Source: an uncultured Bacilli bacterium (lineage in GTDB: Bacteria; Bacillota_I; Bacilli_A; ML615J-28; CAG-698). Taken from it: DNA of 28,837 bases. Shown one piece after another: positions 20,514-23,876 of this stretch. The notes below the pieces were generated by a model. It was not told the origin of the DNA, did no database searches, and saw only the letters and a list, made by a program, of their open reading frames with translations. The position numbers and the translations under genes are program-made. The number at the start of each line of letters is the position of its first letter. Position 1 is the stretch's first letter. The DNA lies in the NCBI GenBank assembly GCA_947627195.1, contig CANQVC010000022.1, positions 1 through 28,837 on the forward strand. The letters run 5' to 3'.

Positions 20514-22022
20514 TTATAATTTAAAAATTCTTGTAGCTTCTACTGCTTTTTTCCAACCTTTATATTTATTATTTCTTTCTTCTTTGGTCATAGTTGGTAA
20601 AAATATTTGATTAATACGATGTAATCTTTTTAATTCTTCTTCATTTTTAAAAACATTTGTTGCTAAACCTGCTAGAAACATTGCACCCATAGCTGTAGTT
20701 TCAACACATTCTGGTCTCATTATTTTGCAATCTAAAATATCAGATTGAAATTGCATTAAATAATTATTACTACTTGCTCCACCATCAACCATTAAAGAAC
20801 TTATGTTTGTATTGGCACTTTTTTTCATACATTCCATTACATCTTTTGATTGATAAGCAATTGATTCAACAGTTGCATTTATAAAATGTTCTTTCGTTGA
20901 AAAACGAGTTAAACCAAAAACAGCACCTCTTGCATCATTATCCCAATATGGTGTTCCTAATCCAACGAATGCTGGAACAACATAAACACCATTTGTATCT
21001 TTAGTTATATCACTACTTTTTTCCACATCTTTACTTTTTTCAATTAATTTCATTCCATCCCTTAACCATTGAACAGCACTTCCTCCAACGAATACACTTC
21101 CTTCTAATGCATAAGTTGTTTTACCATTATAATTCCAAGCAATTGTTGTTAAAAGACCATCTGAAGATGAAACAATTTCTTTTCCAGTGTTCATTAACAT
21201 GAAGCAACCAGTTCCATATGTATTTTTTACATCACCTTTTGTAAAACAACATTGTCCAAATAATGAAGATTGTTGATCACCAATCATACTAGCAATTGGA
21301 ATATGTAATGATGAATCAATTTCATTTAAAGCTGTTGCTTCTTCATAAATTTCACTTGATGATACTACATTAGGTAATATAGAAACGGGAATATCAAATA
21401 AAGAAAGTAATTCTTTATCCCATTCTAATTGATGAATATTAAATAGCATTGTTCGAGATGCATTAGTATAATCTGTAATATGACATTTACCTTTTGTTAA
21501 TGAATAAACTAAATAACTATCAACAGTTCCAAATAAAACTTCATTACGTTTTGCCTTTTCTTTTATTTCAGGATATTGTTCAAATATCCAAGCAATTTTA
21601 CTTAAAGAAAAATATGGATTTATTTTTAAACCTGTCTTTTTAGAAATAATTTCTTCATATCCATTATTAATCCATCTTTCACATATATCTTGTGATTGTC
21701 TACTTTGCCACACAATTGCATGATATAATGGCTTCATAGTATTTTTATCCCATAATATTGTTGTTTCTCTTTGATTAGTAATACCAATTGCTTTAATGAA
21801 TTTCTTTTCATCTCCAAGAGTTCTTAAAACCATTTTGATACATTCATAAACTGTTTCTAATATTTCTTCAGGATTTTGTTCTACCCATCCACTATGAGTG
21901 CAAAATATTCCAACTTCTAATTGACTAGATGTTACAACATTAGCATTTTCATCAAAAACAATAACTCTACTACTTGTTGTTCCTTGATCTATAGCTAATA
22001 TATATGATTTTTCTTTATTCAT
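20514..22022 (-). CDS. glpK: Glycerol kinase
   Basis: 502 aa. The N-terminal 'AIDQGTTSSRVIVFD' FGGY-kinase signature and full-length collinearity with GlpK. RBS GGAGG 7 nt upstream. Confidence 0.95.
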   Translation of the reverse strand: MNKEKSYILAIDQGTTSSRVIVFDENANVVTSSQLEVGIFCTHSGWVEQNPEEILETVYECIKMVLRTLGDEKKFIKAIGITNQRETTILWDKNTMKPLYHAIVWQSRQSQDICERWINNGYEEIISKKTGLKINPYFSLSKIAWIFEQYPEIKEKAKRNEVLFGTVDSYLVYSLTKGKCHITDYTNASRTMLFNIHQLEWDKELLSLFDIPVSILPNVVSSSEIYEEATALNEIDSSLHIPIASMIGDQQSSLFGQCCFTKGDVKNTYGTGCFMLMNTGKEIVSSSDGLLTTIAWNYNGKTTYALEGSVFVGGSAVQWLRDGMKLIEKSKDVEKSSDITKDTNGVYVVPAFVGLGTPYWDNDARGAVFGLTRFSTKEHFINATVESIAYQSKDVMECMKKSANTNISSLMVDGGASSNNYLMQFQSDILDCKIMRPECVETTAMGAMFLAGLATNVFKNEEELKRLHRINQIFLPTMTKEERNNKYKGWKKAVEATRIFKL

Positions 22023-22839
22023 AAACTTCCTCCACTTCTATTAATCCTAAATCGATAAAACTAATTAAAAGTAAACTTAATGCGTAATATACTTGATATG
22101 CATTATAATATTCTTCTTCTTTATCTAATAAAGATAAATTAATATTAGCAAAATGATCTAAATTATAATATATATTTTCATTTGGTAAAAATAAATTAAG
22201 ACCATTAAATAATTGTTTAATACCATGAATTATTTTATTTTCATCAATTTCGTAATAATGATATCTTTGTTTATATACATATTTTTTATAATTTGTTGAT
22301 GAAAGATATAAATTATTAACATCTTGATAACATGAAATAATAAATGATTCAATTGCTGGGTAACTTAATAATAACAATCCACCATATTCTATATCATTAT
22401 CTTGGGAATTTTGAAATTGCTTCATTAAATTTTGAATTATTGATAATTGATTAGATGAACGATCACGATCAAATATATAATATACTGAAGCATTATCCAT
22501 TTCCAAATGATAATCTTCAAATAAAATACGATATATTTTATCAATAAATTCTTCACTTGAAGAAACACTTGAAATATTTGAATTTTTAGTATTTATTACA
22601 TAAACTTGCGAAAAGGGATTATTTTTATTTTGAAACTTATCACAAAAAACAAATTTATTTTTTCCTTTTCTTTTAATACTCATAAATTCATAATGGAATA
22701 TATTAGTAAAAAGATATTTTAATAATTCAATTTCTGTTTTTTCTCCTTCAACAAAATATACTACTTTACCAATATTTTTATTTTTATGAAGACAAATATT
22801 CTTAATCTTCATAATTAGGTATTCCTTCAAACATTCCAC
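22015..22839 (-). CDS. TOPRIM-like effector (RloB/AbiLii- or DUF4435/AriB-like) of a two-gene ATPase-nuclease defence module
   Basis: 274 aa. The N-terminal 'VVYFVEGEKTEIELLKYLF' (TOPRIM Glu, RloB-like EGxKTE) and 'YYIFDRDRS' (DxD) ~90 aa later. It overlaps the upstream ATPase gene by 38 nt, and its last 8 nt overlap the glpK start. Confidence 0.45.
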   Translation of the reverse strand: MECLKEYLIMKIKNICLHKNKNIGKVVYFVEGEKTEIELLKYLFTNIFHYEFMSIKRKGKNKFVFCDKFQNKNNPFSQVYVINTKNSNISSVSSSEEFIDKIYRILFEDYHLEMDNASVYYIFDRDRSSNQLSIIQNLMKQFQNSQDNDIEYGGLLLLSYPAIESFIISCYQDVNNLYLSSTNYKKYVYKQRYHYYEIDENKIIHGIKQLFNGLNLFLPNENIYYNLDHFANINLSLLDKEEEYYNAYQVYYALSLLLISFIDLGLIEVEEVYE

Positions 22840-23818
22840 TTAAATACATTTTTTCAATATTTTGTGATTCACGTGGTTGATAAGATGAAATTTTATGACA
22901 ATGACTTCCTTTATCTTTATCAAACTGAACTATATACATTTGATCAAGTCTTAATAAAGTTGTTTTTAAAAGATTTGAGGAATGAGTGGCAAATATAATT
23001 TGACTACCTTTGGTATTATTCATAAAAGAACGAATTAAAAATTCTTCTAATTTGTGATGAAAGCCAATTGTAAATTCATCCATTAAAAACATTCCATGTT
23101 TTTTTTGAAAATGAAATAAAATTGGTAAAAATTGGATAAAAGTTTTATTTCCTAAAGATTCAAAAGCAAATGGAACTTTTTCATTTCGCCCTTCTTTTTG
23201 AATATATAATTCGTTATCATAAAATAATTGAAAATCAAAATGATGAATTTTAAGAAATTGATTAATGAAATCTGTATTATATTCTTTTAAATATTTATCT
23301 AACATTATAGGTGAATTAGAATATATTTGTAATTTTTTATCTTCATTAATATAAATAGAATTTTTTAAATATTCTTTTAATGATTTAAATAATGGATTAT
23401 TTTCTAAAACAAAAAATAATTTTAATCTATTATTTGAATTTGGTAAATTTATTTCTGTTTGATTTAAATATAATTTTTCATCAAATTGACATTTTTCATT
23501 TATTATCCATTGATATTTAATAATTTGATTAGGAAAATGGAATTTAAATATAAATTTCATTTCTTTTTCTTGTGAAAATAAACAAAAATATTTTTGATAA
23601 TCAATATTATTATTACTATATAAAGTATCCAATAATAATTGAATTGATTGAACTATATTGCTTTTACCAACACCATTTTCGCCAATAAACATTAAACCTT
23701 TCAAAATATTTTGATAAACATTTGTATCTTGAAGTAATGAATAATTTGATGATGAAAATGATATTGTAGTTTCTTCAATAAATGATTTAAATCCTTTTAC
23801 AACTATTTCTTCTAACAT
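22802..23818 (-). CDS. ABC-type AAA_21 ATPase (AbiLi/RloA/AriA/OLD-N-like) of a defence module
   Basis: 338 aa. Walker A 'GENGVGKSN', Walker B 'FLMDEF', and the C-terminal 'FATHSSNLL' H-loop typical of SMC/AAA_21 defence ATPases. No TM segments. Confidence 0.55.
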   Translation of the reverse strand: MLEEIVVKGFKSFIEETTISFSSSNYSLLQDTNVYQNILKGLMFIGENGVGKSNIVQSIQLLLDTLYSNNNIDYQKYFCLFSQEKEMKFIFKFHFPNQIIKYQWIINEKCQFDEKLYLNQTEINLPNSNNRLKLFFVLENNPLFKSLKEYLKNSIYINEDKKLQIYSNSPIMLDKYLKEYNTDFINQFLKIHHFDFQLFYDNELYIQKEGRNEKVPFAFESLGNKTFIQFLPILFHFQKKHGMFLMDEFTIGFHHKLEEFLIRSFMNNTKGSQIIFATHSSNLLKTTLLRLDQMYIVQFDKDKGSHCHKISSYQPRESQNIEKMYLSGMFEGIPNYED

Positions 23819-23847
23819 AATATTTAATTCCTCGTATATTTATGTTT

Positions 23848-23876
23848 ATTATACCAAAAATTAAAATTTATTTCAA
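23848..23876 (-). promoter_or_regulatory. Sigma-70 promoter with extended -10 (TTGAAA, 17-nt spacer, TGgTATAAT) for the ATPase/TOPRIM module
   Basis: Minus strand: TTGAAA(23876..23871), a 17-nt spacer ending in TGG, then TATAAT(23853..23848). RBS GAGGA before the ATG at 23818. Confidence 0.5.

Follow-up and report, generated by a model that had tools for sequence, protein, structure and literature searches.

The window analysed here is the 28,837-nucleotide (nt) stretch at positions 1 to 28,837 of contig CANQVC010000022.1 from an uncultured Bacilli bacterium (GenBank assembly GCA_947627195.1). Immediately upstream of its glycerol kinase gene, glpK, lie two overlapping genes that encode an ATP-binding cassette (ABC) ATPase and a predicted Toprim nuclease, the latter referred to below as the partner. 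Comparison with known systems indicates that the pair is probably a defence or toxin-antitoxin module of the AbiL/RloAB class. A defence role of this kind had been proposed in a sequence-only reading of the same DNA, which had also likened the pair to the PARIS system. The genes and signals of the locus are as follows.

25707..26480, minus strand: ABC transporter ATPase gene, a member of an ABC transporter operon (Pfam)
24923..25714, minus strand: BPD_transp_1 permease gene of the same operon (Pfam)
23896..24921, minus strand: gene for an NMT1-type binding protein, the last gene of that operon
23848..23876, minus strand: sigma-70-type promoter, with -35 TTGAAA at 23876..23871, a 17-nt spacer and an extended -10 TGgTATAAT at 23856..23848
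23829..23833, minus strand: Shine-Dalgarno sequence GAGGA, read from the sequence, 10 nt before the ATPase ATG
22802..23818, minus strand: ABC ATPase, Rad50/SMC-head-like (AAA_21), 338 amino acids (aa), identified from Pfam, PADLOC and an AlphaFold2 (AF2) model
22015..22812, minus strand: partner of 265 aa starting at the ATG at 22812, a predicted Toprim nuclease like RloB/AbiLii
20514..22022, minus strand: glpK, FGGY glycerol kinase (Pfam FGGY_N and FGGY_C)

Every gene in this part of the window lies on the minus strand, in the order NMT1 operon, ATPase, partner, glpK. This gene order agrees with the position between an ABC transporter operon and glpK described in the sequence-only reading, the operon being of the NMT1 type. 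A gap of 77 nt separates the NMT1 gene from the ATPase open reading frame (ORF) and houses the promoter. The extended -10 promoter claimed earlier was recovered in a promoter scan, where TTGAAA-17-TGgTATAAT scored 11/12 with the TG extension. Promoter-like matches as a whole were not enriched in this 24% GC window (38 were found and 40.7 expected from shuffled sequence), so the call at 23876..23848 is based on the high score together with the intergenic position. An internal match at 22189..22162 scored 10/12 and is another candidate promoter for glpK.

In the program-made list of ORFs the partner is a 274-aa frame running from a GTG at 22839 (22015..22839), and this was the length first given for it. 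The start is most likely the ATG at 22812, since public gene calls and the N-termini of homologues begin there and an AAGGAA site lies 9 nt upstream; the product is then 265 aa and the ATPase and partner genes overlap by 11 nt. At the other end of the pair, the partner stop and the glpK ATG overlap by 8 nt (ATGAATAA, 22015..22022), as had been noted. A scan of 19900..24200 gave no terminator-like site, so there is none between the pair and either the upstream operon or glpK, and read-through from the NMT1 operon is therefore possible. Because the partner stop overlaps the glpK start, by 8 nt here and by 4 nt in a sister genome described below, glpK is probably the third cistron of a transcript that begins at the 23876..23848 promoter and also carries the ATPase and partner genes, while itself standing outside the module.

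All three motifs claimed for the 338-aa ATPase were found in its translation: Walker A GENGVGKS (residues 46-53, G46-S53; 23660..23683), Walker B FLMDE (D247 and E248; 23075..23080) and the H-loop FATHSS (H279). It also has a signature-like ESLGNK (E220, S221, G223) and a strongly conserved C-terminal tail (residues 316-334), PRESQNIEKMYLSGMFEG, with the consensus PRESQNxEKMYL..F.G.P in an alignment of homologues (A2). Pfam AAA_21 (PF13304), the family to which the sequence-only reading had pointed, matched profile positions 3-303 of 304 with 78.1 bits (expectation value, E, 1.6e-21), above the gathering cutoff of 27 bits. The best match in the defence libraries was the PADLOC AbiLi model (PDLC02335; E 8.9e-43, 144.6 bits, residues 1-337), followed by PADLOC PDC-M12A (E 6.4e-27); the PADLOC AriA models were far weaker (2.6e-20 and 6.5e-10). 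A search of NCBIfam gave no meaningful match for either protein of the pair. The AF2 model of the ATPase was confident, with a predicted local distance difference test (pLDDT) score of 85.5, and its top Foldseek matches were SMC and Rad50 heads, PtuA, retron PtuA and GajA (E ~1e-11 to 1e-10). A sequence profile weakly reached solved AriA (E 3e-4, ~70 residues) and PtuA. By sequence and by predicted structure, the protein is a minimal Rad50/SMC-head-type ABC ATPase of the AbiLi kind.

The impression that this ATPase is smaller than its relatives was borne out, as it has 338 aa and the homologues mostly have 375-393 aa. Approximately 45 residues present in most homologues in A2 are missing from the window protein and also from P0121, which at 53% identity is its closest relative, and the loss is spread over four gaps in the variable region between Walker A and ESLGNK. 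Walker A, Walker B and the H-loop are invariant in A2, and all catalytic motifs are intact in the window protein. The short form is also found in the sister species, and a similar one in another homologue (P0159).

The VEGEKTE and FDRD motifs claimed for the partner are likewise both present in its translation. In an alignment of 37 diverse members of its family (A1), the invariant residues were G15, E22, G23, E27, D115, R116, D117, N121, G145, S150, Y151, E155 and D219; E22, G23 and E27 fall within VEGEKTE, and D115-R116-D117 is encoded at 22462..22470. The AF2 model was confident (pLDDT 88; predicted template modelling score 0.88) and shows strands alternating with helices, with E22 directly after strand 16-21 and the DxD motif at the end of strand 109-115. 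In the canonical Toprim layout, as outlined in a paper citing its original description, four parallel strands form a sheet in which a Glu follows strand 1 and DxD follows strand 3 (Aravind 1998, cited in PMC12409363). In the model the placement of E22 and DxD is that of this canonical layout, which supports a predicted Toprim fold. Two further elements of the model are a beta-hairpin inserted at residues 41-62 and, at the C-terminus, a domain made of helices (172-255).

RloB (PF13707) was the sole Pfam family to match the partner (E 1.2e-6, 29.1-29.3 bits). Of the two families that had been suggested for it, therefore, RloB was recovered, below its cutoff as discussed later, and DUF4435 gave no Pfam match at E<=1. 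Among the 37 family members, the Pfam RloB model matched 10 (E<=0.01), PADLOC AbiLii 15 (best 3.3e-7) and PDC-M12B 17 (best 3.5e-10); the window partner itself had no match to PDC-M12B at E<=0.1. No AriB model appeared in the PADLOC matches of the 37 members, and no AriB chain among the fold-search matches of the partner. For comparison with true RloB proteins, a set was taken from proteins adjoining ATPases on plasmids, including one from C. beijerinckii that scores 150.8 bits against Pfam RloB. When A1 was aligned with this protein using hhalign, VEGxxTE/ICEGKDTE, FDRD/FDVD and LSYPxIE/ISNPCFE were in register, and a 9-sequence RloB profile aligned with A1 over the DxD-to-PxxE core with 78% probability (E 1.7e-5).

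In a profile search of 1.84 billion representatives, clustered at 50% identity, the partner family came to 570 clusters with E<=1e-3, of which 346 had E<=1e-10 and 179 had E<=1e-30. No precomputed Pfam domain was present among the 120 listed of 205 detectable partner homologues. The family is thus compact, with ~350-570 clusters, and lacks Pfam annotation. Run against all Protein Data Bank (PDB) chains, its sequence profile gave a chance match only (E 1). On sequence grounds the partner is best described as a divergent RloB/AbiLii-type Toprim protein and not an AriB, with links to the known families that are real but distant.

Pairs that join an ABC ATPase with a Toprim protein (AbiL, RloAB, PARIS) form a widespread and partly understood class of abortive-infection systems, and to our knowledge a mechanism has been worked out only for PARIS. 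AbiL of L. lactis plasmid pND861 is, like the window pair, an operon of two genes, the first encoding an ABC/Rad50-like ATPase and the second an RloB/OLD-type Toprim partner. In the window the two genes adjoin in the same orientation, with the ATPase gene leading and an overlap of 11 nt, and this order recurs in 75 of 79 other loci. The window pair differs from AbiL in its shorter ATPase, in a partner that matches AbiLii weakly (E 1.9e-4) and in being chromosomal, in an operon with glpK, whereas AbiL is plasmid-borne. RloA/RloB pairs (PF13707; annotated by the NCBI pipeline, PGAP, as 'RloB family protein'), which include examples on small enterobacterial and clostridial plasmids, have the same architecture with overlapping genes. 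Their plasmid ATPases are 23-25% identical to the window ATPase over the full length, and the EGxxTE, DxD and [S/N]Px[I/F]E motifs of RloB align with those of the partner in hhalign. The partner differs from RloB in its extra beta-hairpin (41-62) and longer helical C-terminal domain and in having IESF in place of the RloB hallmark FELW..HF. The window pair is also not linked to type I restriction-modification genes, unlike RloAB.

The likeness to PARIS is more general: an ABC ATPase acting as sensor or antitoxin is combined with a separate Toprim effector, and there is the weak profile similarity to solved AriA (E 3e-4). AriA has ~460 aa with long arms, and PARIS is often carried on phages or satellites, whereas the family of the window partner is almost absent from viral collections. 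Membership of PARIS was rejected, and the PARIS-like label given earlier dropped, as neither DUF4435 nor AriB matched the partner and the fold searches brought up no AriB. PDC-M12 of PADLOC resembles the window pair in that the ATPase matches its A model and 17 of 37 relatives of the partner match its B model; the matches indicate that the partner and PDC-M12B are sister families rather than the same family. PDC-M12 is listed in PADLOC without description and is presumably a candidate system only; a literature search for it found no paper. The fused OLD nucleases (P2 Old, Gabija GajA and the retron Eco8 effector) differ in that the window domains are separate proteins of very low sequence similarity to them. 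Class 1/2 OLD membership was rejected, the fused polypeptide that defines it being absent. GajA needs GajB, and the retron effectors need a reverse transcriptase and multicopy single-stranded DNA. A further parallel, compared by domain description, is the NetFlax pair TOPRIM_OLD(D44, RloB-like):AAA(D29) of Clostridium algidicarnis, which has the same domain pair in a Clostridia host (PMC10440598).

Several of the plasmid loci have features of their own. Very small enterobacterial plasmids of 3.9-5.3 kb (L088, L096 and L097), several of them ColE1-like, carry an AAA_21 ATPase with an RloB-family or hypothetical partner. On the one from Raoultella (L088), replication genes are the only other cargo in the whole record, and the 260-aa partner has no Pfam match and aligns to the A1 profile over the DxD-to-C-terminal region. 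In Klebsiella plasmids of 4863 bp (L090) the ATPase has 432 aa and shares 35% identity with the window ATPase over its own C-terminal third; the gene that comes next encodes a hypothetical protein of 122 aa and stands in place of an RloB-like gene. This suggests effector swapping on a conserved ATPase.

Relatives were sought in one genome per species from 185,579 species, which gave 219, and the loci of the best 80 of these were surveyed. Their hosts were Clostridia, Bacilli, Anaeroplasma, Halanaerobiales, Desulfobacteraceae, Treponema and Paludibacteraceae. Leaving aside the sister genome, tblastn placed an ATPase gene directly before the partner gene in 75 of 79 loci. Three of the four unpaired loci were cut by contig ends and the fourth (L080) was a pseudogene remnant. 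The two were separate ORFs in the window and in all related loci, with no fused ATPase-Toprim polypeptide. When the two nearest ORFs on each side were taken from 37 loci, the 148 flanking ORFs fell into 173 Pfam families with no recurring third gene; defence genes among them were GajA in 3, N6_Mtase in 2 and the MADS mad3 model in 5. The pair is thus a strictly paired, patchily distributed and mostly chromosomal cassette, as is typical of accessory defence or toxin-antitoxin genes.

Two of the surveyed copies are degraded. In a Treponema metagenome-assembled genome (MAG; L080, 2445..3761) a partner fragment without ATPase lies beside an integrase-like fragment, and in a Bacilli MAG (L028, 2318..4243) both genes are split and look frameshifted. 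Such copies, and an ATPase ~45 residues shorter than most relatives, are what would be seen if the window pair were itself a decaying, non-functional remnant whose ATPase had lost a sensor region. We think this quite improbable, as both ORFs are intact with the invariant residues of both families all present, both AF2 models are confident, and the short form has been kept in the sister species despite 47% divergence and has a similar counterpart in P0159.

The pair adjoins glpK only in the window and in the sister species, represented by a rabbit-gut 'uncultured Bacilli' MAG (L003/L004). Between the window and this sister genome the transporter proteins are 79-85% identical and glpK 77%, and the partner and ATPase 68% and 53% respectively. 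Among relatives whose glpK is 70-71% identical, L084/L085 have the order ABC_tran, BPD_transp_1, NMT1, a 110-nt gap and glpK, and so represent the empty site; L087 has a small Pyridox_ox_2 gene between NMT1 and glpK, and L086 has unrelated genes upstream of glpK. Because the pair is next to glpK only in the two sister genomes and the NMT1-glpK junction is empty in nearer relatives, comparison of these sequences indicates that the common ancestor of the two species acquired it by insertion at a variable position upstream of glpK. The insertion suspected in the sequence-only reading is thus supported by the empty junction, and the 75 other loci have the pair in unrelated neighbourhoods. The third-codon-position GC content (GC3) of the pair is 7.5%, compared with ~9-12% in host genes. 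A recent horizontal transfer was rejected, as this GC3 is host-like and the insertion is common to species whose flanking proteins are 77-85% identical.

It had further been proposed that the insertion orphaned glpK from glpF and glpO. Neither gene is beside glpK in the window, as was said, and neither is there in the relatives without the pair. Separation of glpK from glpF by the insertion was therefore rejected; glpF never precedes glpK in these relatives, and the sequences indicate that it is not ancestral at this locus. The promoter described as private to the pair is present in the window and is not constant: in the sister genome an ApbA-like gene, which has its own promoter, precedes the ATPase gene at a distance of 12 nt, and the window promoter is therefore not intrinsic to the cassette. 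In the empty-site genomes a TAGTATAAT promoter for glpK lies in the same gap as the window promoter. The window promoter may be the displaced glpK promoter, though the AT-rich spacers are too diverged to align.

That the end of the partner gene and the beginning of glpK have 8 nt in common in the window and 4 nt in the sister genome, and that the three genes probably form one transcript, could be taken to mean that the pair is functionally connected with glycerol metabolism, or with the adjacent ABC transporter, via translational coupling with glpK. This is scarcely credible: glpK is next to the pair in just two related genomes among the loci examined, it stands alone and looks functional in relatives without the pair, and the Pfam, PADLOC and NCBIfam searches suggest a metabolic role for neither protein. 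A glycerol-linked role was rejected because the adjacency is confined to the two sister genomes, and the fusion to glpK is a local accident of an insertion that they have in common.

The other side of glpK is variable as well. The ~8.7 kb between glpK and a DUF2752 gene (10999..11379, plus strand) differ from the corresponding regions of L003, L084, L086 and L087; in the window this stretch contains ORFs of 93 aa and 378 aa, the latter with no Pfam match, a Big_2 protein and two ABC/FtsX genes, and in the relatives the site downstream of glpK is taken up instead by a gene for EamA or Mem_trans or by an unknown gene. By this comparison each side of glpK is a hot spot for insertions in this lineage.

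The distribution also bears on whether the pair has a housekeeping role in nucleic-acid metabolism, either as a RecF/RecR-like repair pair or with an RNase M5-like RNA-processing nuclease. RecFR likewise combines a Toprim protein with an SMC-like ATPase, the AriB active site resembles that of RNase M5 (PMC12409363), the window has no mobile-element genes and the composition of the pair matches the host. A housekeeping function is nevertheless very improbable. The scan of 185,579 species genomes yielded just 219 relatives, the nearest relatives lack the pair and show an empty NMT1-glpK junction, and the pair diverges faster than its flanks (53% and 68% identity, compared with 77-85%). There was no NCBIfam, RecF, RecR or RNase M5 match, and the copies in L028 and L080 have become pseudogenes.

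The explanation that fits best overall, and which we consider likely, is that the window holds an AbiL/RloAB-class pair in which an ATPase restrains a nuclease that aborts infection. The ATPase-plus-Toprim system of this class that had been claimed is upheld by the AbiLi match (8.9e-43), the aligned RloB motifs and the pairing in 75 of 79 loci. Of the two outcomes that the sequence-only reading had named as contrary to it, a lack of family matches and synteny with glpK across distant taxa, neither was seen. The putative defence function is suggested by homology and by analogy with better-known pairs. AbiL confers abortive infection in Lactococcus by a mechanism that is not known (PMC13064643), and an RloB-like TOPRIM toxin from Clostridium algidicarnis is neutralised by its AAA ATPase partner in E. 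coli (PMC10440598). In PARIS, AriA sequesters AriB, a nuclease that acts on tRNA-Lys and has two metals in its active site (PMC12409363, PMC11464382), and P2 Old cuts the anticodon arms of tRNA (PMC12445682).

By analogy with these systems, complex formation, trigger, substrate and defence phenotype might be as follows. An oligomer of the ATPase would bind and restrain the Toprim nuclease, serving as both sensor and antitoxin, until a phage-derived trigger freed or activated the nuclease. The acidic cluster of the nuclease (E22, D115, D117 and E155) would then cut nucleic acid with the help of a divalent metal. The target would most probably be tRNA, as for AriB and P2 Old, ahead of DNA, as for GajA; even so, the assignment of tRNA as substrate is tentative and somewhat doubtful. 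Cutting of nucleic acid would halt translation or replication, and the infection would be aborted.

The strict linkage, overlapping reading frames and patchy distribution of the pair would also suit a selfish toxin-antitoxin module, in which the ATPase neutralises the toxin and the module persists by post-segregational killing or genomic stabilisation without useful phage defence. RloB-like TOPRIM:AAA pairs were validated as toxin-antitoxin systems in the NetFlax study, and one of its AAA-neutralised pairs yielded no phage hits in E. coli (PMC10440598). Pure addiction seems unlikely to us, as PLSDB plasmids, on which addiction should count for most, lack the pair, and both genes have stayed intact across a speciation event with the catalytic residues all conserved. 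Nor does addiction exclude abortive infection, since PARIS behaves as both (PMC13064643).

A number of observations weigh against an AbiL/RloAB-class defence pair. The partner falls below the Pfam RloB gathering cutoff (29.3 compared with 31.5 bits), and its match to PADLOC AbiLii (PDLC02337) is weak (E 1.9e-4, 20.1 bits). Foldseek comparison of its model with the PDB gave nothing significant, the best hits having E 7e-3 and TM <0.35 and being mostly GTPases. The shortened 338-aa ATPase could be impaired. The partner had no tblastn match in PLSDB plasmids or INPHARED phages and has no family in PHROGs, and its family is nearly absent from IMG/VR (2 contigs), so that mobility is deduced from distribution only. 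No mobile-element genes flank the pair among its Pfam-annotated neighbours in the window, and as its GC3 is like that of the host its acquisition appears to be old.

Gene arrangement, ATPase family and Toprim chemistry are each already known, and in this sense the locus is fairly ordinary and does not challenge current understanding. The sub-family of the partner is divergent, lying outside the Pfam models and being caught marginally by PADLOC. It is conceivable, if on balance unlikely, that the partner represents a separate RloB-like Toprim lineage with its own trigger and substrate, and that the 338-aa ATPase is a minimal sensor. If so, the target of the partner could be a tRNA or rRNA differing from that of AriB or Old, the ATPase could show the smallest architecture able to restrain a Toprim toxin, and the fusion into the glpK transcript may couple expression of defence to carbon-source regulation. 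The locus combines a naturally minimal ATPase with an insertion site that is clean and datable, in a gut Bacilli lineage with reduced genomes, and is a reasonable candidate for asking how general the 'sequester and release a tRNase' mechanism of PARIS is.

Some further features of the window were observed. Just downstream of glpK, at 20399..20426 on the minus strand, is a perfect 12/12 promoter, TTGACA-16-TATAAT with TG, and downstream of it lies the 93-aa ORF (20073..20354), which is signal-peptide-like and has no family match.

Five large ABC_tran genes lie within 15 kb on the minus strand (1696..17117). Pfam FtsX domains were found in those at 1696..4317, 5775..8669 and 14391..17117 and not in those at 8666..10936 and 11743..14394; in the sister genome (L003) only the counterpart of the 5775..10936 pair is present. 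The genes in 11743..17117 (minus strand) are two tandem fused ABC-ATPase/FtsX-permease genes of 883 and 908 aa, whose N-terminal ~282 residues are 100% identical; the remainder is strongly diverged, so that overall the identity is 49%, with many gaps. At the DNA level they form a direct repeat of 96-100% identity with 2723-nt spacing. The pattern resembles that of recent gene conversion, or of an ATPase head that was duplicated and sits on divergent permease/extracellular domains. Within the ABC/FtsX gene at 1696..4317 there is a CTT/TTC-rich tandem repeat (3597..3728), the coding strand of which is purine-rich. It coincides with extreme GC and AT skew, the GC skew falling to -0.6, and probably encodes a Lys/Glu-rich low-complexity linker.

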